From: Polyangia bacterium
GTDB lineage: Bacteria; Myxococcota_A; Polyangia; Polyangiales; Polyangiaceae
Direction of reading: 5' to 3'
Assembly (NCBI GenBank): GCA_030426145.1
Contig: JAUHZF010000008.1
Coordinates: 819 to 64,818, forward strand
Length of the DNA: 64,000 nucleotides
The notes under the pieces: generated by a model
Told to the model about the DNA's origin: nothing
The model's input: the letters and a program-made list of their open reading frames with translations, nothing else
Database searches by the model: none
Position numbers and translations under genes: made by a program
Shown: piece by piece, positions 11,622 through 35,348 of the stretch
Layout of the letters: each line of letters begins with the position of its first letter
Position numbering within the stretch: the first letter of the stretch is position 1

Positions 11622-12656
11622 ATGCCTCAACCAACGGAAGAAGAGCTCCAGAAGGCCCCAGTCTTCGAATCCATATCGGACGCGCTCTCTGCCGACGGCC
11701 CCGTCTACAAGCTCTCGACGGCCGTGGCTCATGACGCAAAGGAGCTCGCCGAGCTGAGCGACCTCGTCGAGCTCACCCTCGGTGGCTCCGTCGCGCCTCC
11801 GAACTCCATCGGCGAACTCCCCAACCTCCGCCAGCTGGAGGTGAGCATGCCCATGGTCGAGTTCCCGAGCTGGGTCGAACGACTCCCGCGCGGCCTCCGA
11901 AGCCTCACCCTCACCATGGCCAGCTTCGACACGGTCCCGGAGTCTCTCGGTGAGCTCAGCTCGCTGCGCTCCCTCACCCTCGGTAGCAACAAGCTGAAGA
12001 AGCTTCCCGACAGCATCGGGAGCCTCGTCGACCTTCGTCGAATCGCCATTCGCGAGGGCAAGCTCACCGGCCTGCCGCAGACCCTCGGTGGTCTGACACG
12101 GCTCAAGAAGCTCGAGGTCACCAACAACAAGCTCACGGCCCTCCCCGAGTCGCTCTGCGATTGCGCCGACCTCGGCGAGATCGACCTCACCAAGAACGCC
12201 CTCAAAGCCCTCCCGGAGCGACTTGGCGAGCTGCAGAGATTGAGGGTCCTCAAGCTCGACAAGAACAAGCTCAGCGCGCTCCCCGCTTCTCTCTTTACCG
12301 TGGGGGCCCTCGAGGTCCTGAGCGCACGGGAGAACGGCATCGAAGCCCTGTCGGACGACGTGGTTCGACTCGCCAAGCTGCGTGAGCTGCACCTCGGGCA
12401 CAACGCCCTCGCCACCCTTCCCGAGCTGTCCGGCCTGCCCTTGAAGAAGCTCGACGTCAGCCACAACGAGCTCGCGGCCTTACCGGCATCCGTGGGCGAG
12501 CTCCCCCTGCAGCTGTTGGTCGTCGAGAGCAACAAGCTACGCGGCCTGCCCGCTATTGTGGCCAAGCTCAAGAAGGCGACCGTCTACGCCAAAGGCAACC
12601 GCCTGCCCAAAGCCGAGCGCGACGCACTCAAGGGACGCAAGAACGTGTACCTATGA
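11622..12656 (+). CDS. Leucine-rich repeat (LRR) protein
   Basis: At least 12 consecutive LxxLxLxxNxLxxLPxxL repeats with a ~23-aa period are readable in the translation. Confidence 0.85.
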   Translation: MPQPTEEELQKAPVFESISDALSADGPVYKLSTAVAHDAKELAELSDLVELTLGGSVAPPNSIGELPNLRQLEVSMPMVEFPSWVERLPRGLRSLTLTMASFDTVPESLGELSSLRSLTLGSNKLKKLPDSIGSLVDLRRIAIREGKLTGLPQTLGGLTRLKKLEVTNNKLTALPESLCDCADLGEIDLTKNALKALPERLGELQRLRVLKLDKNKLSALPASLFTVGALEVLSARENGIEALSDDVVRLAKLRELHLGHNALATLPELSGLPLKKLDVSHNELAALPASVGELPLQLLVVESNKLRGLPAIVAKLKKATVYAKGNRLPKAERDALKGRKNVYL

Positions 12657-13619
12657 CGAGGTTCGTAGCTCGAATCGCTCGAGCCACTGCCCCACGTCGG
12701 AAGCACTCCAGGGTCCGAGAAACAACAGCTCCGAATCCGCCGGCGCTCGTACGGTCCGAACCATCTCGTCTGCCGTGCGATAGGGCTGCGGGATGTCGAG
12801 CCGATTGATGTCACCCCGTCGTGGCCCCAGGCCTGCGCGAAGGACCACGCCCGCGCCCACAGAGGTCACCGAAACCTGATCGCGATCCGCCAATGCTGCG
12901 GCAGGGCCGGTCACGCGCCGAAGCAGCTCTTCACCGAGAAAGGTCAACCAGTTGACCGAGCGCAACTGCCCGTGAAGCTTGTCCATATTTCGAATGTGGA
13001 AGCCCACGTCGTATCCCACGAAGCGTCGAGCATGGGCGTAGATGGCCGCACACGGGACGTCTGCACCGTTCAAGCGTTGCATCGAGTAGGTAAAGCCAGC
13101 GGCTCCCCAACGAAATCGCAAACGACTCGCAATGGCCGTCACCCGAGCCGCGAAGTCCTCCACATCTCCATCGTCGGGTACCGTGAGTCTGAGGCAGGCT
13201 CGGGCCGGTAAACGCGTCGACTCCGCAAGGACCGGCGCGATCTCGCTCCAGAATGCATAACCGAAGGGCGAGGCGCTTCGGCCATCCCCCTCGCCGTGAA
13301 GCGTGACCTCGAAGTCGTTGCGGCCGAACTTGGTTAGGTTGTTGATGAGGAACTGCTCGTTCGGCGTCGCCTGGGCAGGAGCATCGAGGCGGCCAGCATA
13401 GCTGGAGATGTAATCCAGATGCTTCCGCCGCGCCGCCATGGGTTCCATGGCACACGACATGGTGGTGAGGTTCAGCTCTGAACCGAACCAGTCCCATATC
13501 AAATCGTTGACCTCATCGAGCCGCGCCTCGTCGTCGGGCTCGAGGTGCTCGAGGTGAAAGTACGCCCCCAGGGCACTAAAGAGCACAGGCGCTCCTGCTT
13601 GCGAGGCGAGCGGTCTCAT
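12651..13619 (-). CDS. Hypothetical protein, DUF3396-like; candidate T6SS immunity-family protein
   Basis: The true start is MRPLASQAGAPVLF at 13619, an ATGA overlap with the upstream stop; the listed 439-aa form is an Arg-rich extension. The blocks FGYAFW, RFRWGAAGFTYS and VNWLTFLGEELL remind me of DUF3396, annotated elsewhere as a type VI immunity family. This is memory-based and unverified. Confidence 0.65.
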   Translation of the reverse strand: MRPLASQAGAPVLFSALGAYFHLEHLEPDDEARLDEVNDLIWDWFGSELNLTTMSCAMEPMAARRKHLDYISSYAGRLDAPAQATPNEQFLINNLTKFGRNDFEVTLHGEGDGRSASPFGYAFWSEIAPVLAESTRLPARACLRLTVPDDGDVEDFAARVTAIASRLRFRWGAAGFTYSMQRLNGADVPCAAIYAHARRFVGYDVGFHIRNMDKLHGQLRSVNWLTFLGEELLRRVTGPAAALADRDQVSVTSVGAGVVLRAGLGPRRGDINRLDIPQPYRTADEMVRTVRAPADSELLFLGPWSASDVGQWLERFELRTSS

Positions 13620-14419
13620 AGCGCCACCTCGACCTCGACGAGCGCGTTCTGCTCGTGGTGAAACCGCGTCAGCATGTTGAGCAAGACCGCCTTGGCCGGC
13701 TGCGGGGTCCAGAGGAACTCGGGAAAGAAGGCCCGCAGCTCGTCCTTCGCCTGACCGTAGGCCGGAAGCGACTTGTGGGGATTGAACTGCACCTCGCCGC
13801 CGAGCTCGGTGCGGTAGAGCTGGATGAAGGTGACCCAGTACTGACACAACTCCTCGAGGCGTTGGCGCATCTCTGCCGTGAGCGCCCCATCGAGCAACAC
13901 CCTCAGCTCGGTTCGGTCCTCGTGAGGGTGTCGCGCCGCGTCGATGACTCGGAATGGCCACTGCCCCCACGCTTCCGGGTAGTCCTTCGCATTGGCGAGC
14001 CAGTACTGCACCATGGGTGTGGTGACGGAATGATCACTCTGGTCGGTGGGCACGGATCCGACGACGCTAATCGTGGTCACGGGATAGCCGACCCCGCTGA
14101 GGCTCAGCTGCTCGACGACGTTGCGCATGAACGTCCGCGCGACCCCCTCGACCTCGAGCGTGAAGTGGTGCTCGGCCCCCACCGCCTCCTCATCCGTCAT
14201 CGGCCCCGTGAGCACCCTCGCCTGACCCACCCTGGGATCGAAGGCGCGCCCCCCTGCCGCACCGAGCGCGATGGCATCGACGATGTTGGCGACCGCGACA
14301 TTGACATAGGGCGCGACCGGATCACTCGCGATCTTGATGTACAGCGCCAGAGTCTGCGGCTCGGGACTCTCGCGATAGGCGACCTGGAGCGCCGTGCCTG
14401 AAAAGTCGAGATTGGACAT
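13616..14419 (-). CDS. Hypothetical protein; candidate cognate immunity protein, immediately downstream of the putative toxin
   Basis: 267-aa ORF starting 4 nt after the toxin stop. The composition is balanced. I recognised no family. Confidence 0.65.
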   Translation of the reverse strand: MSNLDFSGTALQVAYRESPEPQTLALYIKIASDPVAPYVNVAVANIVDAIALGAAGGRAFDPRVGQARVLTGPMTDEEAVGAEHHFTLEVEGVARTFMRNVVEQLSLSGVGYPVTTISVVGSVPTDQSDHSVTTPMVQYWLANAKDYPEAWGQWPFRVIDAARHPHEDRTELRVLLDGALTAEMRQRLEELCQYWVTFIQLYRTELGGEVQFNPHKSLPAYGQAKDELRAFFPEFLWTPQPAKAVLLNMLTRFHHEQNALVEVEVAL

Positions 14420-14422
14420 GGC

Positions 14423-15097
14423 TCAACGAGGGCAGTTCTGGTGGTTCGGACCGCGCTTACCACACTTCTCGGCACTCGCTTCGAAGCCCTTGTTGGGGTC
14501 GTTGAGCATCTGGTAGTCCTCCTCTTGGCCGTTGCGGTACCTGTCGAAAGGGCCCTTGATTTCGAGGGTGCGGTTGCCGACCAGCCCGTCGGGGAATCGC
14601 AGCCGGCAGCCGTTACCATAGACCTGCCGCCACCCGTTCACGCCTGGCGCCACGTTGCGGAACATCTGGCCGATGCCGAGACAGTTGCGAAAGACGCCGC
14701 CGCTCATGCCCGAGAGCATGCCCATGCCGGCTCCAAGGAGTGTTCCGCCCGCCATGTAGGCGGCCCTCGCGTGTCCTCCCGCAACCGCGCGACAGGCCGG
14801 GCCGATGACCGGGTTGTTGGCGAGGCTCGCCGCGGTGCCGACAAACCTACCCACGATGCAAGGCACCTCGCGAGCCGTGGCCGCCGCAAGCGCACGCCCG
14901 GCCTGGGTGTTCGGCGCCGGGAGGTTGTTGAGCGCGTCGAAGAAGTAGTTGTTGAAGGTGCCGCGTGGTCGAAGTCGGGGGCGCTGACAGAAGACCTCGG
15001 CCGCCTGCGTGAAGGCGCGGCAGTACAGCTCCCACTTCTGCCCGTCAGGCATGGTGAGGCCGGCATTGACGAGCGCGGTTGGAGCTTGGGTCGCCAT
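14423..15097 (-). CDS. Putative T6SS cargo effector with a C-terminal PD-(D/E)xK-like motif
   Basis: 224 aa, directly downstream of the PAAR-like gene. It contains a Gly-zipper-like hydrophobic stretch (GGTLLGAGMGMLSGMSGG) and, near the C-terminus, RLRFPDGLVGNRTLEIKGPFDRYRNGQ, which fits PD...ExK. Confidence 0.65.
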   Translation of the reverse strand: MATQAPTALVNAGLTMPDGQKWELYCRAFTQAAEVFCQRPRLRPRGTFNNYFFDALNNLPAPNTQAGRALAAATAREVPCIVGRFVGTAASLANNPVIGPACRAVAGGHARAAYMAGGTLLGAGMGMLSGMSGGVFRNCLGIGQMFRNVAPGVNGWRQVYGNGCRLRFPDGLVGNRTLEIKGPFDRYRNGQEEDYQMLNDPNKGFEASAEKCGKRGPNHQNCPR

Positions 15098-15126
15098 GCG
15101 TCAGCCCCTCATCACCGAGCCGGGGA

Positions 15127-15501
15127 CTATGTGTTGGAGTTGCCGCTGTCGAGCGTGCGTGCCACGCCACCCGACTCGGCCTTCACGTCGTTCGACGACA
15201 TGGTGATCTTGCACATACCCATGATCTTGTTGCTCACCACCCCGAGCGCGACGCCCGGTTGATCGCCGTTGGATAGAGCAGACTTGCCCTTCTTGGTCCA
15301 CATCGGCGTCGCCATGACCAAGGTCTTGGTGGTGTACCCAGGGCCCATCGTCGCCGACAAGGCGATGTTCGGATAGGGCATGGGCACGGGGCCGCCGGGG
15401 GTAGGTGTTTTGCACACGTCGAGGGGTCCCGTCGTCACTGCTGTGTGGCCCGAAGCAACGCTGGCGCAGAACTTTTTCGAATTGACGAGCGGCACGCCCA
15501 C
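15127..15501 (-). CDS. PAAR-like DUF4150 domain protein (T6SS spike-tip protein)
   Basis: Hallmarks: PLDVCKTPTPGGPVPMPYPN, SNGDQPGVALGVVSN, and the C-terminal SSNDVKAESGGVARTLDSGNSN. Confidence 0.8.
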   Translation of the reverse strand: MGVPLVNSKKFCASVASGHTAVTTGPLDVCKTPTPGGPVPMPYPNIALSATMGPGYTTKTLVMATPMWTKKGKSALSNGDQPGVALGVVSNKIMGMCKITMSSNDVKAESGGVARTLDSGNSNT

Positions 15502-15555
15502 AGTTTGGCACGTTCCGGCGATGATGTCCTCGGGCGGACAGCGCTCGCAGATCCC

Positions 15556-16560
15556 TCACAGCTTCTCCTTGCGCATGATGAGGAGCTGTTCGACCTCCTC
15601 GTACTTCCTCGGGAGGCGGAAGGACGCGCGCCAGGTGAGCTCGACCCGCATAGCGTCGGCGTCGATCAGCACCGTGTCGAGATGGCTTCTCGCCTCGCTG
15701 CGGCGGCCCGCAACCAACATCGAGAACCCGAGGTGGAGACGGGGCAGCGCGAACTGCCACAGCCCCTCCGGTGTTGCGCCGATGACCTCGACCGGCTCAT
15801 CGCCAGCCAAACCAGCCATGCACCATTGGTCCTCGGGAGCACACACATTGAAGCGCGGATCGAAGTCGTCGGGCAGGAGCGGCATCTTGTAGCTCATCCA
15901 CGCTTCGTCGTAGGTCCCGGCGAAGCGACAGCGTGGCTCCCAATGTCGGTGAAGGGGTCCAAAGCACCATGGCGTGTGGTCGCTCGTGAGGCTGCCTCGC
16001 TCGATCTGCACCGCGGGCTGGCCTACGAGCTGGGACGGGTCGCTCGCCACCCCACGGCCGACCGTGTTGCGCGCGTCGCCAACCGGTCGCTCTGGGTCCG
16101 ACAGGTCGAGACCGCCCCATGCGAGCTCGTACTTCAGCGGCACGGGCTGCTGGATGGGCTGTGCCGGTCCTGGCCATGGTCGCCCACCGCTAGTGCTTTC
16201 CCAGACCCTGGGTCCGTAGACACGCGCCGACTTCTTGATGGGACCCATACGCAACGACACGTCGACCGCCTTGTCCAAGCCCGGACGACGAGGGTGCGCG
16301 TGGCCCACCAACAGGACATCCGTCCCTGGCTTGAAGTCAAAGACATCGGAGGGCTTGCGAATGCTGCTCATGGCCGGGTCCTCGCCGTGCCATTCATCCA
16401 CCAAGTAAGGACGCGGGGCCTCGGTCGCCGCCGTGACGTGGCCACGCGCATCCACATCGAAGGTCTGCTTCGCGATGAGTACGATCTGGTCGCGCCCGTC
16501 CTTGTCCTTCATCGGAAGGGCCGCGTGCTGCGTCGGCGACTCGTTCAATACGTCGAGCAT
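15556..16560 (-). CDS. DUF2169 domain protein (VgrG-associated adaptor family)
   Basis: The start MLDVLNESPT at 16560 overlaps the vgrG stop (TGATG). DUF2169-like blocks: IVLIAKQTFDV, FKPGTDVLLVGHAH, CFGPLHRHW, FNVCAPEDQ, DTVLIDADAMRVELTWR. The listed 534-aa form is a spurious extension. Confidence 0.85.
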   Translation of the reverse strand: MLDVLNESPTQHAALPMKDKDGRDQIVLIAKQTFDVDARGHVTAATEAPRPYLVDEWHGEDPAMSSIRKPSDVFDFKPGTDVLLVGHAHPRRPGLDKAVDVSLRMGPIKKSARVYGPRVWESTSGGRPWPGPAQPIQQPVPLKYELAWGGLDLSDPERPVGDARNTVGRGVASDPSQLVGQPAVQIERGSLTSDHTPWCFGPLHRHWEPRCRFAGTYDEAWMSYKMPLLPDDFDPRFNVCAPEDQWCMAGLAGDEPVEVIGATPEGLWQFALPRLHLGFSMLVAGRRSEARSHLDTVLIDADAMRVELTWRASFRLPRKYEEVEQLLIMRKEKL

Positions 16561-18782
16561 CACTTGTCCTCGACCACCGGAACTAACTCGGGTTGAGGTC
16601 CGGTCGCGGTCAACTTTATGGTCGATGACTTGATCACCACGCTGCCCCCACCGATCGCCACCGAAGAGCCTCCCACCTTGAGAAGGATCTTGGCTCCGTT
16701 CATCGAGACCGCGCCGCCGACGTTCACCGTTAGGTTGCCATTGCTCTCGAAGCCGACCTCGCTCGCCGCGTTTGCCGCCCAGGCTCCGCCGACCGTCGTC
16801 GCCTTGGCGCCGCCCACCTTGACCCCCACGTCGGCACCGCTCGCCTGAACAAGCGCCCCGCCGACTGTGGTCGCCTTCGCCCCTAGCGTGGTGTCGCTCT
16901 TGCCCGTGGCGCAGGCCTCCACCTTGGCGCCCCCAACCGAGATGGTCGTCGCGCCCGCGACGGCGATGCCTACCTCCAGCGCCGCGACTTCCAGGCAGCT
17001 GCCCCCGACCGTCTCGGTGAGCGTGGCCGGGGTGCTGACCCCAACGCTCATCGGCGTCATGGTGGTGTGACTGCCCCCGATGGTCCAGGTGCGGTCGCCT
17101 TTGACGGTGATGTTCTCGCCGCCGCCCACCGTCTTTGTGCGGGAGGCACCAACCGACCAAGTCTGGGCTCCACCGACGGTAAGCTGATGCGCGTCGCCTA
17201 TGGTCGTGGTCTCATTGGCGCCCACATCACGCGTGTGATTGGCCCCCACCGCGACCTGGGCATCGGTGGTCACTTTCTCGGTCTTGTCGTTGGCCACGAC
17301 GAGGTTCTGGTCCTTCTCCGCGTGCACGTGAACGTGCTCGGACCCTGCCGCGTCCTCCATGCGCACCTCATTGTGTCCGCCTCCCCCCGGAGACGACGAA
17401 GACTGAAGCGACGACTGCGTCTTTGATCCAGGGAGGGGATAGGGGGGGCGATAGGTCCCGTTGTAAAGCCGGCCGAGCACGACCGGTCGGTCGGGATTGC
17501 CGTCCTCGAAGTCGACCAGAACCTCCCAGCCAACCCGAGGGATGGCCACCGATCCGCTGGTGTGCATCTGGGTGACTCTCACCCAGGCCGAGCTCGTGTC
17601 ATCAGAGGCTCCTCCGCGGTCGAAGGGGAACTTGACCTTGATGCGGCCGAACTCGTCGCAGTGGATCTCCTCTCCGGGCGGCCCGGTCACGGTGGCTAGC
17701 TGCGGCCCGGGGACCAGGGCCCGCGGTCGTGGATGGCTGCGAAATACCATCGTCGCCGGCAACAAGTGGAACGTGTTCTCGTACTGCCGCTCGGCGTCGT
17801 GGGCGTAGCGATGCGTCACGTTGCGAACCACCCAACGCTCTTCGAAGGCGCCTCCGGGTCCCTCCATCAGAGAAAAAGCGTGGCCCGCGGAGAATCCAAA
17901 GCACGTGCTCATGCCTTCGAGGCCGACCGATGCCGCCGTCCATGCGTCGACCCGCACACGAGCTCTGCGACTTCCCTCCGAAGCATCCGAATACCCCCCC
18001 GGGAAGTCGTACTCTTCCAACCCCAGTACCGCGTCCGACGTCGCTTCCACCTCGAGGAGGCCGGGTCGCTTGAAGTCGTGATCGCGGAGCGTCACCTTCC
18101 CCGGACGCACCTGCTCCACCTCCTCGAGCCAATGGATCGCCTCGGCCCCGGTGAGCGCGCGCTCCTCGCGAAAGATGACCTCGGGCAGATCGACGTAGGC
18201 GCTCGGATCATCGGCGAGCACGACACGCGGCTCCCCGTCCTCGATCTCGACGAAGCCGAAGATCCCGTCTTCGGCCATCAGCCGAAGCAGGAAGTCGTAG
18301 CTCGTCTCGCCGTACTGGGTACAGATCTCCCGTTCAGGCAACGTCCCCGTGATCCGCCACAAGATGCGGTCCGACAGAACCGCTTCGTCGAAGACCTGGC
18401 TTGCGATGTCCTGGCTCGTCATCTCCTGGAAGAGCCGATAGTCCCGCGTGTGCCGAAGCAGAACGAATGGGGACTCGATGACCACCGCGATGTGCTGATG
18501 GGTGTCGCGCCCCTCTATCCCGAGTGGGGTCGCATCCTCCCCCACCGACGTCACCACGCCCGCGAAGTGACGCAACGGCTCACCGTCCCGCATCACGACG
18601 ACGGAGGCGCCACCGAGGAGCCACGCCTGGGGCTCGATCTGGGCGCCGGGCAGAACGACGTCGACGTCGATACGGTAGTCGGGGGTCAGTGACTCGACGA
18701 CGGTGAAGCGTCGAACCGTCACCATGCTCGGGTCGACGCCTTCCACGGCGAAGACCACTTCGTATTGGTCCTTCGTGCTCAT
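16560..18782 (-). CDS. vgrG: Type VI secretion spike protein VgrG, copy 3 in transcription order
   Basis: gp27/gp5 core motifs: LFQEMTSQDIASQV, GPPGEEIHCDEFGRIKVKFPFDR, IPRVGWEVLVDFEDGNPDRPVVLGRLYN. It has a C-terminal beta-helix with VGG repeats. Confidence 0.95.
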   Translation of the reverse strand: MSTKDQYEVVFAVEGVDPSMVTVRRFTVVESLTPDYRIDVDVVLPGAQIEPQAWLLGGASVVVMRDGEPLRHFAGVVTSVGEDATPLGIEGRDTHQHIAVVIESPFVLLRHTRDYRLFQEMTSQDIASQVFDEAVLSDRILWRITGTLPEREICTQYGETSYDFLLRLMAEDGIFGFVEIEDGEPRVVLADDPSAYVDLPEVIFREERALTGAEAIHWLEEVEQVRPGKVTLRDHDFKRPGLLEVEATSDAVLGLEEYDFPGGYSDASEGSRRARVRVDAWTAASVGLEGMSTCFGFSAGHAFSLMEGPGGAFEERWVVRNVTHRYAHDAERQYENTFHLLPATMVFRSHPRPRALVPGPQLATVTGPPGEEIHCDEFGRIKVKFPFDRGGASDDTSSAWVRVTQMHTSGSVAIPRVGWEVLVDFEDGNPDRPVVLGRLYNGTYRPPYPLPGSKTQSSLQSSSSPGGGGHNEVRMEDAAGSEHVHVHAEKDQNLVVANDKTEKVTTDAQVAVGANHTRDVGANETTTIGDAHQLTVGGAQTWSVGASRTKTVGGGENITVKGDRTWTIGGSHTTMTPMSVGVSTPATLTETVGGSCLEVAALEVGIAVAGATTISVGGAKVEACATGKSDTTLGAKATTVGGALVQASGADVGVKVGGAKATTVGGAWAANAASEVGFESNGNLTVNVGGAVSMNGAKILLKVGGSSVAIGGGSVVIKSSTIKLTATGPQPELVPVVEDK

Positions 18783-18790
18783 GGTAGACC

Positions 18791-21004
18791 TCAGTTGTGC
18801 TTCACCACAGAGCCCTTCTTGTTCACGACAGCGCCCGGCGCGAGGATGGTCGGCGCCTTGACCTCGACGCTTCCGCTCTTGACCTTGACCGAGCTCCCCC
18901 CGCAGCGAATCGAGATCTCGCTCTCGGCCTCGATCTCGATGGTAGGCGCATTGGCCAGTAGTGCTCCGCCCACGTTGAAGACCAATGGTCCCGTCGCCTG
19001 CTCGCCGACGTTGCCTCCGGCGGCAATGGCGTAAGCGCCGCCCACCGTCTCGGCGAGGGCCCCTTTGACGCTGGTCTCGACCCCGCTCGCTCCGGCACAG
19101 ACCTTCGCACCGCCGACCGTCTCGGCCACCGCGCCGCCGGTGATGTTGTCGACCCCCGTGGCCGCTGCGCTGACCCAGGCGCCTCCCACGGTGATGCTCA
19201 GGGATCCCAGGACCAAGCGATTCACCCCGAGGGCGGCGACGTCCATCATCGATCCCCCCACCGTGAGGGTACGGCCGCTCTTGGCTTCGACCTTGCTGCC
19301 CATGGTCACGGTCACGGTCCTCGATCCCCCGACTGTCACCGTTTCGGAGCCCTTGATCTGGGTCCCTCGGTCGCCCCCGACCGTCACCGTCTCACTGCCT
19401 CCCACCGTGCAGCTCTGATCGTCGGTAATGCCGCAAACGAGCTGCGTCCCCACCGTTACGTCGAGATTGGAACCAATGGTGTGTGTGTAATCGACGCCCA
19501 CCTTGTCGGTCTTGTTGTCACCAATGGTGACGTTCATGTCCTTGGTCGCGTTCATGAAGATCTCCTCGGAGCCCTTCTTGTCTTCGAACCGGATCTCGTT
19601 GCTGGTTCCGTCCCCCGGGGTCGTGGCCGTCTGCCAGGCCGTGCGCGTCTTGTTCTCGGGAAGTGTGTAGGGAACGGGATGCGTGCCGTCGTAGACGTGA
19701 CCGGCCACGAACGGCACGTCGACATCGTCTTCGTTGAAGCCGACCAGCACATCCCAGCCGATGCGCGGCATGATCATCGAGCCACCCAAGGCGAACTGCC
19801 CCACCCGCATCCAGGTCGACGCTTTGTCGTCCTTGCCCCCTTCGCGGTCCCAGTAGAGCTGCACGCGCACACGCCCGGTGTCGTCGGAGAGGATCTCCTC
19901 CCCCGGCGGACCGACGACGATGCCCGTCTGCGGCCCGCCGGTGCTGCGCGTGGGCGATGTTCGTGCGGCACGGTATCGCGTGTCCACCGCGATGGCGCGC
20001 CACGCCACCGTGAGCTCTTGCTCGACCGGAAGCTCGGCGCCGCCCGAAGAGGTCTCCTTTCCCGGCGTGTAGTTCACCTCGAGCAGCAGGTACGTCCCGT
20101 TCATCGACTCGAGGGGATGGCCCTCGATCTCGAAGGTCATGCCGGGCTGGAGATGGCCCCCAACGGCTTCTCCGTAGGTGACCTCCGCTTCGGCCGTAAG
20201 GGCTTCGAGCTCGACATCGGCGAGCCGCTGCCCCTCGGAGGGGTCGGCGAAGCGCCCGGGACAGTCGTACCGCTCGAGGGTGTCATCGCCGGCCGAGACG
20301 TCGAGCGACAGGCTCGGTTGCTCGAAGTTGTAGTCGCGATAGCGGACTCCCGTCGGCACCATCTCGTGTCGTCGGCCCAGGGAGTGCACCGCCTGGGTCG
20401 CCATCATCAGCCCGGCCGGGTCGCGGAAGGTGAAGGCCGCATCGCCGGGCACCGACGAGGCATGGGTCGTGTCATCGGCGAACACGAGCGTGGTGTCGTC
20501 AGCGGTATGCTCGAAGAAGTAGGTGATGCCCTCTTCGCCCGCGAGCCGAGCGATCACGTCCCAATCCGACTCGCGGTACTGCACGATGTAAGGGCGCACG
20601 GGGAAGCTCCCGTGAACCCGCCACTCCACCGACGCATCGATACTCGCCGTGTCGAGGATCGCCTTGATCGCCGCCACCGCATCCATCTCCTGAAAGATGC
20701 GGCTGTCGGTTCCGTAAGTGAGCTGCGAGACGGCAGGGCCGAGCGTGAGCACGTGCGACACCGCACCCAACGAGCTCATCCGCCTACGAACCCCATAGAC
20801 GTATCCGTGGACGAAGCTTCGCGCTTCGAGGGCATCGCGCAGCGTGAGCTTGAAGGACTTCCCCACGAGCGCATCGACCGCCGGTCCGCCGTCCATGGGA
20901 AGGGTCTCGACCTCCAAGCCGAACGGCTTGGACAGCTCGAAGCGCGCGCGTGCACTGGCCACGCGCATGGTCTCTCCGGATACATCGATCTCGAGCGGAC
21001 GCAT
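18791..21004 (-). CDS. vgrG: Type VI secretion spike protein VgrG, copy 2
   Basis: IFQEMDAVAAIKAILD, GPPGEEILSDDTGRVRVQLYWDREG, MPRIGWDVLVGF, and a C-terminal beta-helix. There is an 8-nt gap to the next vgrG. Confidence 0.95.
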   Translation of the reverse strand: MRPLEIDVSGETMRVASARARFELSKPFGLEVETLPMDGGPAVDALVGKSFKLTLRDALEARSFVHGYVYGVRRRMSSLGAVSHVLTLGPAVSQLTYGTDSRIFQEMDAVAAIKAILDTASIDASVEWRVHGSFPVRPYIVQYRESDWDVIARLAGEEGITYFFEHTADDTTLVFADDTTHASSVPGDAAFTFRDPAGLMMATQAVHSLGRRHEMVPTGVRYRDYNFEQPSLSLDVSAGDDTLERYDCPGRFADPSEGQRLADVELEALTAEAEVTYGEAVGGHLQPGMTFEIEGHPLESMNGTYLLLEVNYTPGKETSSGGAELPVEQELTVAWRAIAVDTRYRAARTSPTRSTGGPQTGIVVGPPGEEILSDDTGRVRVQLYWDREGGKDDKASTWMRVGQFALGGSMIMPRIGWDVLVGFNEDDVDVPFVAGHVYDGTHPVPYTLPENKTRTAWQTATTPGDGTSNEIRFEDKKGSEEIFMNATKDMNVTIGDNKTDKVGVDYTHTIGSNLDVTVGTQLVCGITDDQSCTVGGSETVTVGGDRGTQIKGSETVTVGGSRTVTVTMGSKVEAKSGRTLTVGGSMMDVAALGVNRLVLGSLSITVGGAWVSAAATGVDNITGGAVAETVGGAKVCAGASGVETSVKGALAETVGGAYAIAAGGNVGEQATGPLVFNVGGALLANAPTIEIEAESEISIRCGGSSVKVKSGSVEVKAPTILAPGAVVNKKGSVVKHN

Positions 21005-21008
21005 GTGC

Positions 21009-23312
21009 TCACCCCAGGAGGTTCGGGCTACCAGAGACCTTGATGGCGCCCGATGCGTCGAGGGTCACCATGCCAACGAAGCTCGCCGACGCCGGAGTGA
21101 GGTTGACGATTCCCCCACCGCCGAGGAGATTTGCGACTCCGAGGACGTTGATCGAGACCTTGCTGCCCTTCATGGTGAACTTGCTGCCGGCATTGGCATT
21201 GATGAGGCCACCCACCGTGACGGCAGTAGCCCCCTTCGTGGAGGCGAGCCGATTGCCTCCCGCCGCCTGCACGCAGACGCCACCGACCGTGCAGGCATAG
21301 GCGCCGATGACGGACTCGGTGACCGACTTGCCCGACGCGGCGACCTTGGCGCCCCCGATGGTCTCGGCCTTGGCGCCGGCGACGGCGACCCCCACCCCCA
21401 AGCCGGCGGCGGAGAGCATCGACCCGCCCACGGTCAACGCCTGGGCGCTGGTCGCCGTGCGGTCGATCCCCAGGGCAGCCAGCGCAGTATGGCTGCCCGC
21501 GGTGGTCTCGCTGTCGCTTCCTTCGATGGTGGCGTTGATGGCTCCGCTCACGGTCACCGTCTCGCTCGCACCGACGGTCTTGGAGCGGTCTCCGCTGATC
21601 ATCGTGGTCGCGTTGGCCCCCACGGTGAGAGAGCGGTCGCCCCCGATGGTGACGTCCTGATTGGCCCCGACCTCGAGCGTGCTGTTGACGCCCACCTCCT
21701 GGGTCTCGTTCACGCCAATCTGTTCGGTGCGGTTGTTGTTCGTCTGGCCGTCGAAGTCCTTCGATGCATTGACGAAGAACTCCATGCCGCCGCCCCCGTC
21801 CTCCATACGGTACTCGTTCGACTTCCCGCCACCTGGGCTCGTCGGCGTCTGCAGGGCCATGCGGGTGCCGGCAGATGGGTAGCCGTAGGGAGAGGTCTTC
21901 TCGCCGTTGTAGAGCCTCTGAGCACCGATGGGGCGATCGGGATCACCATCCCAATAGATGACCGACATCTCCCACCCGACCCGGGCTAGGGCCATCGAGC
22001 CGCCGATGGGCAGCTGGAGCGTGCGCATCCAACGCGAGCTGGTGTCGTCGTCAGCGCCGAGCCGGTCCCAGAAGAACTTGCCCTTCATGCGACCGTACTC
22101 GTCGGTGTGGATCTCCGATCCAGAAGGACCGGTGACGACCACGCTGTGATTGCCCCGAAGGCGCGGGAGGGGCGTGCGTCGGGGTGGTCGATATGGAACC
22201 CCACGGTCCATGCACTCGAACCGGTTGGTGTAGCCCTTCTCTTCGTCATCGCCGCGTGGTCGAAGCGACCACTGGTGCTCGACACGACGGAGCAGCCACT
22301 TCTTGTTGAGCGCATCCCGAGCCGCCCCCGCGAGCTCGAACCACCTGCCGGCCCCAAGGGTCGCGATGTTGGAGACGCCACTCCCAAGGCTGCGCTCCGC
22401 CGCGATCTCCTGGGCCCGAATCTCCGCCAAGGCTTGTCCCTCTTCGGGAGTGAGGTGGCCGGCAGTGTACTCGTAGTCGTCGCCGACGGCTTGCCCGGGA
22501 AGGCTGTGCGTGAGGTTGAGGTCGACGGCGGGCGTCTCGAAGTTGTAGTCGCCGACGCTCGCGCTCTCGGCCGTCACCCGCGAAGTCAACCTCAGCCGTC
22601 GAATACCGACCCCGGACGTGTGCTCCCCCACCAGGGGCCACTCCGTGATTCCGTCGATGGGGAGGAACGCACTCTGCGCATCTGCAATGTGCAGGTTGGA
22701 GGTCCCCTCCTCGTCTGCGACGAAATAGAAGATCCCCTCGTGCTCCAGCAGGCGCGAGAAGAAGGCATGATCGGACTCGCGGTACTGCACACAATAGACG
22801 CGGACGGGGAGACTCCGGTGCACGCTCCAATGGCGCGTCGTGTTGGTCAGCGCCCCCCGGTCCAGCACGTCGTCCACGATCTGCTGCGTATCGAGCTCCT
22901 GGAACATGCGAACGTCGGCCTTGATCTCGAGACGCGTCAGCTCGTGGGCGAGCTCGAGCACGTATTGAAGGCCACTGCCATCGATCCCGGCAAACCGCAC
23001 CGCCCGCACGAGAAAGTGGAAAAAGCGCGCCGGGCTTCCGTCGAGGAGCACCACCAGCACCGCCGGCGCACCGAGTGCGCTCGCGAGATCGAGCTCCGAA
23101 GAGGAGACGACGGTGACCTCCGCCCGACTGGATCGCGAGATCTCTTCGACTACCGTGGCACGAACGAGGACGAGCTCAGCGCTCCCCAGCGCGTCGCACC
23201 GCAGCTCGAGATCGAAACGATTGGCCATCTCTCCATCGGCTGCCACGGCGGCCGAGGCTAGCAGGTTCCCGATCCCGTCGGGATCGGTTTTCCTTGAGCG
23301 CAGGGATGCCAT
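21009..23312 (-). CDS. vgrG: Type VI secretion spike protein VgrG, copy 1
   Basis: MFQELDTQQIVDDVLD, GPSGSEIHTDEYGRMKGKFFWDR, ARVGWEMSVIYWDGDPDRPIGAQRLYN. GAGGAG lies 8 nt upstream of the ATG at 23312. An alternative start is Met29 (MANRFDLELR, 23228), preceded by GGAGAG. Confidence 0.93.
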   Translation of the reverse strand: MASLRSRKTDPDGIGNLLASAAVAADGEMANRFDLELRCDALGSAELVLVRATVVEEISRSSRAEVTVVSSSELDLASALGAPAVLVVLLDGSPARFFHFLVRAVRFAGIDGSGLQYVLELAHELTRLEIKADVRMFQELDTQQIVDDVLDRGALTNTTRHWSVHRSLPVRVYCVQYRESDHAFFSRLLEHEGIFYFVADEEGTSNLHIADAQSAFLPIDGITEWPLVGEHTSGVGIRRLRLTSRVTAESASVGDYNFETPAVDLNLTHSLPGQAVGDDYEYTAGHLTPEEGQALAEIRAQEIAAERSLGSGVSNIATLGAGRWFELAGAARDALNKKWLLRRVEHQWSLRPRGDDEEKGYTNRFECMDRGVPYRPPRRTPLPRLRGNHSVVVTGPSGSEIHTDEYGRMKGKFFWDRLGADDDTSSRWMRTLQLPIGGSMALARVGWEMSVIYWDGDPDRPIGAQRLYNGEKTSPYGYPSAGTRMALQTPTSPGGGKSNEYRMEDGGGGMEFFVNASKDFDGQTNNNRTEQIGVNETQEVGVNSTLEVGANQDVTIGGDRSLTVGANATTMISGDRSKTVGASETVTVSGAINATIEGSDSETTAGSHTALAALGIDRTATSAQALTVGGSMLSAAGLGVGVAVAGAKAETIGGAKVAASGKSVTESVIGAYACTVGGVCVQAAGGNRLASTKGATAVTVGGLINANAGSKFTMKGSKVSINVLGVANLLGGGGIVNLTPASASFVGMVTLDASGAIKVSGSPNLLG

Positions 23313-23378
23313 CAGGGAGACTCCTCGCCTCGGAAGTCACCGTCGGCGGGCGACGGAAGAGACCGCGAGGGGAGCACG

Positions 23379-23879
23379 ATGGAGGAGAGCACGACGACGA
23401 CAGCCGTCCCACCGCGTCTCGACGAAGTGCACGGACTCACCCTCAAGGCCCACGCGGAAATCGCAGCCGAGCTGGCAGAAGGCACCGTGCCGCCGGTCGA
23501 CGTGCTCGCCAAGCACGAGCTCGACGAGGCCAAGTGGAACGAGGCCACGACCCAGTGGATGAAGTACCTGGCCGCCGACGTGCAGGCGCGAGGCGCCGAG
23601 GCGCGCGCGCCGCTCGTGTACTCGGACGCCTTCGCGCAAGCACAAGGTCGGCTCGCCGAACCACCCCAGATCAGCGCCGAGGACTACGCGACCTTGGTGG
23701 CGGAGATCATGGCCGCCGGAGATCCGGCCGGACCGCTCGCGCGGCGCGGCTGGTCGAACGCCGACTACATTCGCCTCTCGCGATCGATGGCTACGAAGCT
23801 CGCGAGCGATGAAGAAGCCCACGAGCGATACTTCCATCGGCTCGTTCACCTGCAGCCGAAGGGGGACGTGCAGTCGTGA
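23379..23879 (+). CDS. Hypothetical helical protein; carries LxL...W-x6-W module copy 1
   Basis: 166-aa ORF divergent from vgrG, with GGGGAG 5 nt upstream of the ATG. GC is high at codon position 3. ATGA-type overlap with the next gene. Confidence 0.6.
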   Translation: MEESTTTTAVPPRLDEVHGLTLKAHAEIAAELAEGTVPPVDVLAKHELDEAKWNEATTQWMKYLAADVQARGAEARAPLVYSDAFAQAQGRLAEPPQISAEDYATLVAEIMAAGDPAGPLARRGWSNADYIRLSRSMATKLASDEEAHERYFHRLVHLQPKGDVQS

Positions 23880-24343
23880 CCATCGATGCCACCGTGGAGA
23901 CGACACGCGCCGAGCCCAAGACGAGCGGGGCCACCGAGGGCGAGCTACGCGCGTTGCGCTTGTGCTCCCTCGACGACGAGACGGCCGTCCTCGGCCTCGG
24001 AGGGCGCCAAGTACAGGCGAACATCGACGAAGGTGTCGACCGCGCCGTGTTGGAGGGTGCACGCTCCCGCGGCGAACGGGTCATCGCCGTGCACGAAGCG
24101 GGAACCTGGACCGTCCTCGGCGTTCTTCGAACGCGTGCCACCCCCGGTCTCGAGCCTGGCGACGACTTCACCATCGAAGCGAACCGCGTCAAGGTGATCG
24201 CAGACCACAGCTTTCTCGTGCGAAGCGGACCCACGAGTTTCTCGATGCGGGCACAGGGCTTCGTCGAAACTCTGGCCAAAGACATCTCCACCCGGGCCAC
24301 CGCCGTGCACAAGCTCATCGGGCGGCTGGTCCGCATCAATTGA
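23876..24343 (+). CDS. Hypothetical small protein whose C-terminus resembles a VgrG terminal beta-helix
   Basis: 155 aa. Its C-terminus (TIEANRVKVIADHSFLVRSGPTSFSMRAQGFVETLAKDISTRATAVHKLIGRLVRIN) aligns by eye with the VgrG-2 end (TIEIEAESEISIRCGGSSVKVKSGSVEVKAPTILAPGAVVNKKGSVVKHN). Confidence 0.6.
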   Translation: MTIDATVETTRAEPKTSGATEGELRALRLCSLDDETAVLGLGGRQVQANIDEGVDRAVLEGARSRGERVIAVHEAGTWTVLGVLRTRATPGLEPGDDFTIEANRVKVIADHSFLVRSGPTSFSMRAQGFVETLAKDISTRATAVHKLIGRLVRIN

Positions 24344-24349
24344 CGCGAC

Positions 24350-24673
24350 GTGAGCGACGGCGAGCTTCCTCAGTTCCCAGGGGGACCCGACCCCAACCTA
24401 CCCATTCCGCGAGAGGCCGTAGAGGGCCTCAGCCTCACGCAGTATGGTGCGCTGCTCGCCGAGCTCGTGGCCGCGCCTACCAAACGGGCCGAGATCCTGC
24501 GTGCCCATCGACTCGACGAGCTGCAGTGGAACCGGGTGGAGCAGACCTGGCTCCTGCGGGTCGCAACGGCGGCCATGAAGCGAGATCTGTCGTTTCAGGC
24601 CGAGCTCGACGAAGCCTTCGGCCAGCGGCGCGCGCAGCTGCGGACCTCTGAGGGTCAGCATCATGACGGATGA
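24350..24673 (+). CDS. Hypothetical small helical protein; LxL...W-x6-W module copy 2
   Basis: 107 aa. EGLSLTQYGALLAELV...ILRAHRLDELQWNRVEQTW parallels residues 17-57 of the 23379 protein. Confidence 0.55.
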   Translation: MSDGELPQFPGGPDPNLPIPREAVEGLSLTQYGALLAELVAAPTKRAEILRAHRLDELQWNRVEQTWLLRVATAAMKRDLSFQAELDEAFGQRRAQLRTSEGQHHDG

Positions 24674-25724
24674 TCTTCCTGCTGGGTCCGCCACCATCGC
24701 CGGCGTCGGTGCGCGCACCCACAACGGGTTCACCGCCTTGCAGGTCACCATGGCCCTACGGGCGGATCACATGGACCCGACGATGTCGCACATGGTCGAC
24801 GCGCACGGAGAAGCGATCGCGACCTGCCGCGACATGTCGATCGGCGACGACGTGCAGGGTCTCGCGCGCTTCGTCGCGCTCGCGGTGCGACCTCTGGCCG
24901 AGGCGGCTCGACCTTGGTGCGAGAACGAGATGCGCAGGCGGGGCTCGGTACGACCCCTCCCGGTGGTGGTCGCATTGCCTTCGCCAGATCGCCCTGGCTT
25001 CGACCACGACCTACCGCGGAGCTTCCTCTCCCTGGTCGTCGAAGGCGCAGGCCTACCGGTCGATCCCGCGTCGCGACTCGTCTTCGGGGGAAGGGGCGGC
25101 GGGGTCGAAGCATTCCGGTTGGGCTTGGAGCTGATCCGCGAAGGACGAGAAGCGGTGCTCGTCGGCGGGGTGGACAGCTACTTCGATCCCGACGTGCTCG
25201 AGCACCTCGCATCAGCCCGACGCCTGCACTCTCTCGAAACGGAGAATGGCTTCATCCCCGGCGAGGCCGCGGCTTTCGTCCTCCTGGTTCGGTCGCGAGA
25301 GGCCACGGCCCTCTACGGCTACGGCGAGCTCCTATCGGCGGTGACCCACGCCGAACCGCAACCCTACGGAAGCGAGGAGCCATGCATCGGCCTCGGGATC
25401 ACCGCCGCCGTGCGTGACGCCGTCGCGGTAGTAGGGCCGACGTCGGGCCGAATCCCGTGGGCCCTGACCGACGTCGCCAACGAGCGTCATCGCGTGGATG
25501 AATGGAGCTATGGCATCACGAGGAGCCATCGAGCCCTACACCCGGACGCCGAGCACGAGCAGCCACTGCTGAACACGGGAGACGTGGGCGCCGCGAGCGC
25601 CGCCATGCTGCTCAGCATTGCTTCGGTTCAATGGCAAACGGGATGCGCACACGGAGACTGTGTGCTCATCGGAACACACTCGGACGGCCCCATGCGCGGA
25701 GCCATGGTGGCGCGAGCGAAATGA
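24663..25724 (+). CDS. Beta-ketoacyl-synthase-like (thiolase-fold) protein lacking the catalytic Cys-His-His triad
   Basis: KAS-like blocks: AVLVGGVDS, ENGFIPGEAAAFVLLV, NTGDVGAASAAM (in place of GHxxGAAG). There is no Cys at the expected nucleophile position (FGGRGGGVEAF). Confidence 0.7.
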   Translation: MTDDLPAGSATIAGVGARTHNGFTALQVTMALRADHMDPTMSHMVDAHGEAIATCRDMSIGDDVQGLARFVALAVRPLAEAARPWCENEMRRRGSVRPLPVVVALPSPDRPGFDHDLPRSFLSLVVEGAGLPVDPASRLVFGGRGGGVEAFRLGLELIREGREAVLVGGVDSYFDPDVLEHLASARRLHSLETENGFIPGEAAAFVLLVRSREATALYGYGELLSAVTHAEPQPYGSEEPCIGLGITAAVRDAVAVVGPTSGRIPWALTDVANERHRVDEWSYGITRSHRALHPDAEHEQPLLNTGDVGAASAAMLLSIASVQWQTGCAHGDCVLIGTHSDGPMRGAMVARAK

Positions 25725-34370: not shown

Positions 34371-35348
34371 ATGGCTTCCTGGCGCACCCCGATCGTGCTC
34401 GGCCTCGCATTGGTGGGGGTCGCGGGACAAGCCTGCTTGGTGGAAATCCGCGACCTGCGGGCCGTGGCCGACGGCGGTGGCGGCACCGGCACCACCACCA
34501 GCGCTGGCGGCGACATGGCCGGCGCCGGTGGCGACGAAGGCCCATGCCCGCCCGACATGGTGCACGTCAGCGATCCCGACGACGGGCTCATCGACTACTG
34601 CATCGACCGGTTCGAGACGACCACGCGCGAGCACGACATCTTTCTCCTCGAGGTGCAGGCCGGCAACGTCACCCCCGAGCAGCCGAGCCCGGCCTGCGAT
34701 GGCAACGAACGACTGCGTCAGGTGGGCAACTTCTGCCCCGATGGCCTCAACGACGCAGACCTCGCCGTCAACTGCGTCGATTGGTGCGACGCCTATGCCT
34801 ACTGTGCCTACAAGGGCAAACGACTCTGCGGCGCCATCGGCACGGGGGGTCCCGTCCCCATGAATGGGCCCTTCCCCGGCAGCATCACCGACGAATGGGA
34901 GTACGCATGTAGCGAGGGCGGCCGGCGCAACGTGCCGTACCTCGCCGACAACGTCACCCCCGATGCGGACGACATCTGCAGCTGCCACTTTCCACGCCAT
35001 TGGGAACCTTGCCATCCCGATGCCACCGAGTGCGCGATGTGCGAAGGCGCAAGCTCCAGCAACAACGCGCCCGGCCCCTCCGACGGCTATCCCTCCTGCG
35101 AGGGAGGCTACCCGGGCTTGTTCAACATGGTGGGCAACGTGGGCGAATGGACCAACCGCTGCGATGGAGAAGGCCCCGACGCGCTCTGTGTCACCCGCGG
35201 CGGCAGCGTAGGTTCGGGCGGCGACTACGAGTACGACGATTGCAACCGCAAGGGCCGCCAACAGCCTCGCCAGGACAACCTCGCCGACGACGACAATACC
35301 CAGTGGCGCTTCTACCTCGGTATTCGCTGCTGCAAAGACGCCAACTGA
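34371..35348 (+). CDS. FGE-sulfatase / SUMF1-family domain lipoprotein
   Basis: Signal peptide with Cys (GVAGQAC). VDWCDAYAYCAYKGKRLC, MVGNVGEWT, and a C-terminal LGIRCC. Confidence 0.8.
   Translation: MASWRTPIVLGLALVGVAGQACLVEIRDLRAVADGGGGTGTTTSAGGDMAGAGGDEGPCPPDMVHVSDPDDGLIDYCIDRFETTTREHDIFLLEVQAGNVTPEQPSPACDGNERLRQVGNFCPDGLNDADLAVNCVDWCDAYAYCAYKGKRLCGAIGTGGPVPMNGPFPGSITDEWEYACSEGGRRNVPYLADNVTPDADDICSCHFPRHWEPCHPDATECAMCEGASSSNNAPGPSDGYPSCEGGYPGLFNMVGNVGEWTNRCDGEGPDALCVTRGGSVGSGGDYEYDDCNRKGRQQPRQDNLADDDNTQWRFYLGIRCCKDAN

Follow-up and report, generated by a model that had tools for sequence, protein, structure and literature searches.

A probable auxiliary type VI secretion module of 13 genes in a Polyangia bacterium, with spike-assembly accessories and a candidate toxin/immunity set

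Orphan islands that combine a vgrG gene with adaptor and effector genes are routine, and to that extent the headline finding reported here is unsurprising: a 64,000-nucleotide stretch of contig JAUHZF010000008.1 from a Polyangia bacterium (the window hereafter) carries a 13-gene module that we read, with a probability of roughly 0.7, as an auxiliary part of a type VI secretion system (T6SS), supplying spike, tip, chaperones and one toxin/immunity set to an apparatus that would be encoded elsewhere in the genome. The locus is of a common kind, represented by an intact, lineage-specific variant in Sorangium-like soil bacteria.

In other bacteria, the dependency between DUF2169, DUF4150 and VgrG proteins and the formation of a Tvp pre-complex have been shown experimentally (PMC11883445, PMC13373197), and we infer both for the present locus. 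DUF2169 proteins were reported to strictly co-occur with VgrG and DUF4150 and to chaperone tips carrying the PIPY motif, which was defined in the same work (PMC11883445). For PRK06147, a role as T6SS adaptor has been put forward; it usually lies beside DUF2169 and has TIGR02270 as its commonest fused domain (PMC7714669), and a 2026 study, which defined the Tvp classes and described TvpC as a VgrG mimic, equated PRK06147 with TvpD, the co-chaperone of DUF4150 tips in class II Tvp systems such as Pseudomonas aeruginosa PA0095-PA0099 (PMC13373197). On the cargo side, DUF3396 proteins are known as immunity proteins against the VRR-Nuc effectors of the TseV type (PMC9635880). The elements of the present locus are the following, with profile matches given as E-values and lengths in amino acids (aa).

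12651-13619, minus strand: TsiV-family immunity protein, 322 aa; PF11876 (formerly DUF3396, now TsiV), 3.6e-21
13616-14419, minus strand: p267, 267 aa, between the toxin and TsiV genes; no Pfam match
14423-15097, minus strand: p224, putative effector, 224 aa; no Pfam match
15127-15501, minus strand: stand-alone Tox-PAAR-like tip (PF13665, formerly DUF4150; PIPY), 124 aa; Pfam 1.4e-25
15556-16560, minus strand: DUF2169 chaperone of the TvpA type, 334 aa, without a pentapeptide-repeat extension; Pfam 1.8e-75
16560-18782, minus strand: VgrG-C, 740 aa; Phage_GPD 1.6e-64, with Phage_base_V and Gp5_trimer_C
18791-21004, minus strand: VgrG-B, 737 aa; Phage_GPD 1.5e-67
21009-23312, minus strand: VgrG-A, maximal open reading frame (ORF) of 767 aa; Phage_GPD 6.8e-65, Gp5_trimer_C 3.1e-27
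23313-23378, no strand: intergenic region between vgrG-A and the accessory operon, about 150 nucleotides (nt) if VgrG-A starts at 23228
23379-23879, plus strand: w166, small helical protein; no family match, 47-53% identical in Sorangium modules
23876-24343, plus strand: w155, candidate TvpC-like 'mini-spike', 155 aa; C-terminus homologous to the VgrG beta-prism tip
24350-24673, plus strand: w107, small helical protein, paralog of the w166 N-terminus by homology to w166
24663-25724, plus strand: w353, PRK06147-type, ketoacyl-synthase-like protein, 353 aa, candidate TvpD-like co-chaperone; NCBIfam NF004798
25721-28477, plus strand: w918, HEAT-repeat protein of the TIGR02270 family, 918 aa; maximal ORF of 991 aa from 25502

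Judged by its gene content, the locus most resembles the class II Tvp systems, with a stand-alone tip as in class III, and we would file it in neither. The type example of class II is the vgrG1b cluster of P. aeruginosa, PA0095-PA0100 (PMC13373197), with which it shares VgrG proteins of 700-800 aa, a short DUF2169 protein (TvpA) that lacks pentapeptide repeats, a protein of the PRK06147 type (TvpD there, a TvpD candidate here), a small protein that mimics VgrG, a DUF4150 tip, a toxin of (here putative) nuclease type and an immunity gene downstream. PA0095-PA0100 also lies outside the core T6SS cluster and serves that core in trans, a situation to which we liken the present one. Unlike PA0095-PA0100, the locus has three VgrGs in tandem instead of one, its mimic has no match to DUF6484, its accessory genes stand in a divergent operon, and a TIGR02270/HEAT protein, two helical proteins and p267 come in addition. 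The tip differs as well: in class II, the PAAR domain forms the N-terminus of a specialised effector such as Tse7, whereas here the PAAR-like gene is a separate ORF of 124 aa with its own stop codon, and p224 begins 29 nt downstream. This split of tip and toxin was found in every related locus with a PAAR-like gene; one short contig (L004) has no such gene, and its toxin gene directly follows a VgrG gene.

The second point of comparison is provided by the TseV/TsiV pairs of Salmonella bongori (TseV1-4/TsiV1-4) and P. aeruginosa (PA0822/PA0821) (PMC9635880). These share with the locus the DUF3396/TsiV immunity protein, the association with a DUF4150 tip, DUF2169 adaptors and orphan VgrGs, the PD-(D/E)xK-type motif in the effector and, in the case of TseV1 and TseV2, the presence of two genes after the toxin. 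Unlike TseV, which is a single fusion of a PAAR-like domain with VRR-Nuc, tip and toxin are encoded by separate genes, p224 has no significant VRR-Nuc match in sequence or fold, the D-to-E spacing is 9 residues in p224 as against 15 in TseV3, and p267, encoded by the second gene after the toxin, is no paralog of DUF3396. The minus-strand arm also follows the order of the class I Tvp system of Agrobacterium tumefaciens, vgrG2 - Tap2 (Atu3641, DUF2169) - Tde2 - Tdi2, namely VgrG, DUF2169, DUF4150-bearing DNase effector and immunity; class I lacks TvpC and TvpD, however, for both of which the locus has candidates, and here the tip is apart from the toxin. With the class III system of Serratia marcescens (VgrG1-TvpAB-TvpB-TvpC-Paar1) the locus has in common a stand-alone PAAR protein and a VgrG-mimic protein of the pre-complex, two members of the w155 family weakly matching DUF3540, whereas the pentapeptide-repeat proteins TvpB/TvpAB are missing here and a PRK06147-type protein, which class III lacks, is present.

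The preliminary description of this DNA had recognised a run of eight co-directional genes at 12651-23312, packed with gaps of at most 54 nt and in part overlapping. ORF calls and Pfam bear this out: coordinates and measured gaps agree (4, 8, -1, 54, 29, 3 and -4 nt from vgrG-A to TsiV), all five of its domain assignments hold, with VgrG, DUF2169, DUF4150 and DUF3396 confirmed by Pfam profiles, and the order of spike, adaptor, tip, effector and immunity is that of the minus-strand arm. The island does not end at 23312, though, as had been proposed, since the conserved module continues through the divergent operon at 23379-28477; the corrected module thus comprises 13 genes at 12651-28477. The divergent operon had been offered as one of two possible partners, the other being a T6SS elsewhere; instead of one or the other, both would take part, as the operon's proteins are read as spike-assembly accessories and no replacement for sheath, tube, baseplate or membrane complex. 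Because the module lacks all four of these, a core T6SS would be needed elsewhere, and we infer that the genome encodes one; T6SS genes have been reported in Polyangiales (PMC10196010).

What binds the two arms together is their recurrence. Related loci were collected from contigs of p224 and p267 homologs and from one scan of species-representative genomes, which gave 15 loci, all in Sorangium or other Polyangiaceae/Myxococcota. When the window proteins were compared with these loci by tblastn, the same 13 genes (w166, w107, w155, vgrG-A/B/C, PAAR-like, toxin, p267, TsiV, DUF2169, PRK06147-like and TIGR02270) were found together in at least 10 Polyangiaceae genomes, at unrelated chromosomal sites and in varying order and orientation. 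In So ce131 (L009), 12 of the 13 genes are given as colinear on one strand, while w166 sits on the other strand at the edge of the locus and tblastn did not detect w107 there; the cargo cassette and the vgrG genes of So ce118 (L007) and S. cellulosum (L008) converge; and in four further loci (L012-L015), w155 lies immediately 5' of the PAAR-like gene. That the set was kept despite repeated rearrangement at unrelated sites is a good argument for a joint function of the 13 genes.

Taken with published work and homology at the family level, this composition suggests the following mechanism. The DUF4150/PIPY tip would be held by the DUF2169 protein (TvpA) together with the PRK06147-like, and hence TvpD-like, protein. 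By analogy to class II and III Tvp systems, the tip might first be seated on a trimer of the TvpC-like w155 and then be passed to a spike built of VgrG-A, VgrG-B and VgrG-C. The motif of p224, its predicted topology and the adjacent TsiV gene suggest that p224 travels on the tip into the cytoplasm of a rival cell and acts there through a C-terminal PD-(D/E)xK-type site, most likely as a DNase. The producer would be protected by the cytoplasmic TsiV-family protein, as its family membership and its co-variation with the toxin indicate, and p267 may be an accessory on the effector side, either a loading adaptor or chaperone of p224 or a co-immunity factor.

The spike proteins are the most readily assigned. 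A gp27-like hub, an OB-fold, a gp5-like beta-prism and homology to solved structures identify them as T6SS VgrGs: Gp5_trimer_C is matched at 1e-27 to 1e-32 by all three, Phage_base_V is recognised by Pfam in VgrG-B and VgrG-C only, and VgrG-C matches solved VgrGs of the PDB with E-values down to 3e-79. The VgrG-A gene described previously is real; its start had been put at 23312, whereas alignment of the N-terminus to orthologs points to an internal Met at 23228, which is likely the true start of a 739-aa protein. A GC-rich hairpin followed by a T-run is located at 23267-23287 on the plus strand, within the N-terminal extension of the maximal ORF, a location that fits the shorter start and the intergenic nature of this stretch. 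No sigma-70-like promoter consensus was found in the intergenic region between vgrG-A and the accessory operon.

Each VgrG is far closer to its positional orthologs (53-61% identity for VgrG-A, 50-56% for VgrG-B and 51-61% for VgrG-C) than to its paralogs in the window, at only 34-37%, which points to an old triad whose members were kept together. Either three alternative homotrimeric spikes or one heterotrimer could arise from it. The beta-prisms differ by 8-residue indels and do not align without gaps, so that their colinearity does not settle the matter. A more ambitious proposal, in which the three paralogs would be an obligate set forming an A-B-C heterotrimer, capped through a TvpC-like pre-complex by a stand-alone PIPY tip that carries a new minimal family of PD-(D/E)xK toxins, with p267 as a new class of effector-specific loading or co-immunity factor, seems to us rather unlikely.

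The tip and its chaperone are equally well delimited. The DUF2169 match covers the full model (positions 1-294 of 294), and the gene is flanked by those of VgrG-C and the PAAR-like protein, its start overlapping the VgrG-C stop. The PAAR-like protein reads PVPMPYPN, that is, PMPY, a motif of the PIPY type, and with 72-84% identity to Sorangium orthologs it is the product of the most conserved gene of the module.

Within the divergent operon, Pfam recognised nothing but HEAT repeats, and the names of w353 and w918 come from NCBIfam. By sequence, w353 appears as a relative of the PRK06147 family (NF004798, E 1.6e-52, model positions 7-342 of 349) and is 54-56% identical to its orthologs in Sorangium modules. 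The w918 protein matches HEAT_2 in Pfam (1.1e-11) and TIGR02270 in NCBIfam (1.2e-18), and it is 45-49% identical to Sorangium orthologs of 1044 aa, which likewise follow the PRK06147 gene. The family of w155 comprises 122 representative clusters in an exhaustive HMMER search, and direct scans of w155 against Pfam and PHROGs gave nothing. A profile of 54 members matched residues 606-655 of 674 of 9mlp_A (E 3.6e-5), and the family profile also matched residues 530-614 of 645 of 7q5p_A (E 0.0038), in both cases the C-terminal tip of a VgrG; 9mlp was recognised as a VgrG since VgrG-C matches it at 3e-79. In other genomes, the w155 gene immediately precedes either vgrG-A or the PAAR-like gene. The match to the VgrG tip, the size and the gene neighbours together make w155 a plausible mini-spike of the TvpC type for the pre-assembly of the tip. 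Two relatives weakly match DUF3540, the class III TvpC family, and two weakly match DUF2345, the VgrG C-terminus; on its sequence, w155 is to be placed outside both described TvpC families, DUF6484 and DUF3540. The long 'VgrG-like' hits P0101 and P0113 of the w155 search proved to be repeat-protein noise, and P0024, considered as a w155-VgrG fusion, results from a frameshift that joins neighbouring w155-like and vgrG-A-like genes in one reading. The two small helical proteins, w166 and w107, for which Pfam and NCBIfam scans gave no known family, have in common a helical domain of some 80 aa in which the residues L..E..W......W are conserved, and one 168-aa protein of So ce118 matches w107 (N-terminal half, 48%) as well as w166 (138 residues, 33%). 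Modules of the Sorangium type have an additional conserved protein of about 740 aa (L007:6578-8797, L008:6577-8799 and L003:1-1770, all minus strand). Its gene lies upstream of that for the PRK06147-like protein and is oriented divergently to the PAAR-like gene; the protein had no match in Pfam or NCBIfam and, by tblastn, no homolog in the window.

In the putative effector p224, a linker rich in Gly and Ala joins a helical domain at the N-terminus to a PD-(D/E)xK-like module at the C-terminus. The protein is very rare: a word-based search of 5.8 billion protein clusters returned five homologs, and mining of the related Polyangiaceae loci brought the family to about 12 members. At 21-55% identity, 12 members share two invariant N-terminal cysteines, a few other residues and a C-terminal block, P169-D170-G...G...E179-x-K181-x-P-x-D185...Q191. 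In an AlphaFold (AF2) model (predicted TM-score, pTM, 0.68; predicted local distance difference test, pLDDT, 65), this block lies within an alpha-beta-beta-beta-alpha-beta unit, the core topology of PD-(D/E)xK/VRR-Nuc nucleases (PMC9635880). We therefore read p224, on motif and model, as a PD-(D/E)xK-like putative nuclease toxin, and keep it out of the TseV family because every attempt at a significant VRR-Nuc match failed. Its earlier designation as a putative toxin is thus supported by motif, predicted topology and neighbourhood, and not by significant homology to a known toxin. A membrane-inserting toxin with a glycine zipper was also considered and rejected, the maximal Kyte-Doolittle mean over 19 residues being 0.92, well below the transmembrane range. 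The toxin slot of four Sorangium genomes is occupied by a homolog of p224 that has diverged strongly, with 21-25% identity (L012:9341-9979, L013:9313-9978 and L015:9279-9977 among them), in which the beta1 strand before the PDG motif is apparently missing and a Cys-rich tail, CNCPGANC...CP, is found at the end. PAAR, TsiV and DUF2169 are far more conserved in these genomes than the p224 homolog, which looks like diversification in the style of polymorphic toxins.

The assignment of the 322-aa protein to TsiV appears solid by comparison: it scores 76 bits against PF11876, for which the cutoff is 25 and which Pfam describes as 'type VI immunity for VRR-NUC', and its family profile matches the solved PA0821 (PDB 7drg, chain 7drg_A) at 6.9e-7. 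Between toxin and TsiV lies p267, which is restricted to the lineage, with only six clusters among 5.8 billion proteins, and which was found in all related loci and always in the order toxin-p267-TsiV; it is a conserved fourth component of the cargo side. An AF2 model with pLDDT 64 shows generic alpha+beta repeats and gave no informative Foldseek match. A diverged second TsiV, as is found downstream of TseV1 and TseV2, was rejected at an hhalign probability of 0.1%.

The place of p267 gives rise to the alternative that survives best, namely that p267 is the real, or a second, toxic cargo, with p224 as a carrier that links it to the PAAR-like tip, and that TsiV neutralises p267. The start of TsiV overlaps the stop of p267 by 4 nt, here and invariably in the Sorangium loci, indicating translational coupling; 11 homologs of p267 share many invariant polar residues (Y15, S18, Q22, R99, D126, R173, R185, E227, N248, R252 and H254), a pattern seen more typically in enzymes than in plain immunity proteins; and p224 has no significant homology to any toxin. 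To set against this, pairwise identities were compared over nine loci, a small sample in which the pairs are not independent. Toxin and TsiV co-vary with r 0.81, and with a partial r of 0.71 after removal of the structural-gene signal, more strongly than p267 does with either (partial r 0.47 with p224 and 0.50 with TsiV), while the divergence of p267 tracks the structural genes VgrG-C (r 0.84) and DUF2169 (r 0.79). This pattern speaks for TsiV being the immunity partner of the toxin, with p267 in an accessory role; an impression gained from identities to the window alone, that p267 co-evolved more closely with the toxin than did TsiV, was reversed by the full pairwise analysis. Moreover, it is p224 that carries an invariant motif of catalytic type, and TsiV homologs are known to neutralise effectors of the PD-(D/E)xK type (PMC9635880). 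We hence consider it distinctly unlikely that p267 is the cargo.

Several results nevertheless weigh against an auxiliary T6SS module that delivers p224. The whole mechanism is read from sequence. The window was covered by 53 genes called on a codon-usage score and 10 further ORFs from the gaps between them, and among these roughly 63 ORFs Pfam found no member of the Hcp, TssA-M or ClpV families, as had been stated before, so that no complete T6SS locus (tssA-M, hcp, clpV) is present within the 64 kb. The 179 bits of w353 lie below the equivalog cutoff of 342 set by NCBIfam for PRK06147. DUF6484, the TvpC family of class II, was matched neither by w155 nor by any of 57 relatives, and w155 resembles the VgrGs of its own locus weakly, both by hhalign (probability 3%, E 0.015) and by phmmer. 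For p224, no match to VRR-Nuc or other toxins was obtained in Pfam up to an E-value of 10, NCBIfam or PHROGs, nor any match to PDB sequences in a single-sequence and three profile searches; no VRR-Nuc domain of the PF08774 type was found by sequence or by fold. Foldseek returned FAN1, the VRR_NUC structure 4qbl and BstYI from the PDB at non-significant E-values of 6.7-9.5, and the best hit in BFVD was likewise non-significant (E 0.47). Three divergent p224 homologs seem to be without the beta1 strand in the alignment. Lastly, p267 had no match in Pfam, NCBIfam, PHROGs or PDB and has no assignable function.

The missing core genes lend themselves to another explanation, that the module is a relic in a genome without a working T6SS, its genes decaying or repurposed. 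Besides the 64 kb without core genes, it is favoured by 1344 genomes that were found to have a VgrG and/or PAAR homolog (a 'spike complex') but neither a T6SS nor an extracellular contractile injection system (eCIS) (PMC7714669), and by some myxobacteria in which T6SS genes are degenerate or absent (PMC10196010). Decay is difficult to reconcile with the state of the genes, however, as all 13 ORFs are intact and tightly packed, and orthologs in at least 10 genomes have kept 29-84% identity, full length and the invariant motifs, which points to purifying selection. With T6SS-related genes reported in Polyangiales (PMC10196010), we regard a relic as very unlikely.

Still less can be said for a self-contained VgrG delivery device, formed by the locus with its divergent operon and independent of any canonical T6SS or eCIS. 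Operon and island are conserved together, no known family accounts for three of the five operon proteins, and unknown secretion mechanisms have been speculated upon for genomes that bear spikes without T6SS or eCIS (PMC7714669). However, PRK06147 and TIGR02270 are T6SS-associated families and a third protein resembles the VgrG tip as TvpC does, the module has no protein that looks like a sheath, tube, baseplate wedge or membrane anchor, and DUF2169 and DUF4150 were reported to co-occur strictly with T6SS spikes (PMC11883445), which renders such a device highly improbable. Least probable of all is that the locus belongs to a phage-tail-like eCIS, in which spikes of the VgrG/PAAR type are used too (PMC7714669), given that the window has no Afp-like sheath, tube or baseplate genes, that the VgrGs are long gp27-gp5 fusions with solved T6SS VgrGs as their best matches, and that DUF2169, PRK06147 and DUF4150 are T6SS-linked adaptors (PMC7714669, PMC11883445).

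Signs of mobility at the auxiliary T6SS module are weak. In line with the preliminary description, Pfam scans of the window ORFs gave no integrase or transposase domain, and no tRNA gene was found in the window. The GC content of the module is just 2 points below that of its flanks, and among the Sorangium modules three are at or above their flanks and one is lower by 0.1 point, without a consistent drop.

Some features of the flanks may be recorded here. A 344-aa leucine-rich-repeat protein is encoded at 11622-12656 (plus strand), convergent with TsiV and overlapping its 3' end by 6 nt; other genomes do not keep this gene beside the module. At 59427-60914 (minus strand; Pfam 1e-67), a second DUF2169 protein is encoded, which has 495 aa and a Pro/Ser-rich low-complexity tail and is only 25-27% identical to that of the island. 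Its neighbours are unrelated, and with no VgrG, PAAR-like or toxin gene nearby it constitutes, at the level of the neighbourhood, an exception to the reported strict linkage of DUF2169, VgrG and DUF4150. Directly beside it is a type I secretion-like operon at 54237-59424 (plus strand), with an ABC transporter of 730 aa, a membrane-fusion protein of the HlyD family of 451 aa and a TolC-like OEP of 472 aa. Two proteins with FGE-sulfatase (SUMF1-like) domains are encoded at 34371-35348 (plus strand) and 50395-51399 (minus strand), and 28745-31687 encodes a protein of 980 aa in which CarboxypepD_reg domains occur several times. Both kinds of protein are common in myxobacterial genomes, which fits the origin of the DNA in Polyangiaceae suggested by the homologs.

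Beyond the eight-gene island described before, the present study adds the boundaries 12651-28477, the accessory set of the Tvp type, the VgrG triad and, on the cargo side, the families of p224 and p267. If the reading as an auxiliary T6SS module is right, it would extend the recently defined Tvp scheme of spike assembly to Myxococcota, through a locus that mixes features of class II (a PRK06147-type protein) and class III (the stand-alone tip) and that has a candidate mimic of the VgrG tip outside DUF6484 and DUF3540. The conserved triad of divergent VgrGs might offer a natural test case for the idea that VgrG spikes can be obligate heterotrimers, and p267, w166/w107 and the TIGR02270/HEAT protein are brought to attention as conserved, T6SS-linked proteins. 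In addition, the pairing of a very rare toxin family, p224, without detectable homology to VRR-Nuc, with immunity of the TsiV type may widen the known target range of the DUF3396 immunity proteins.

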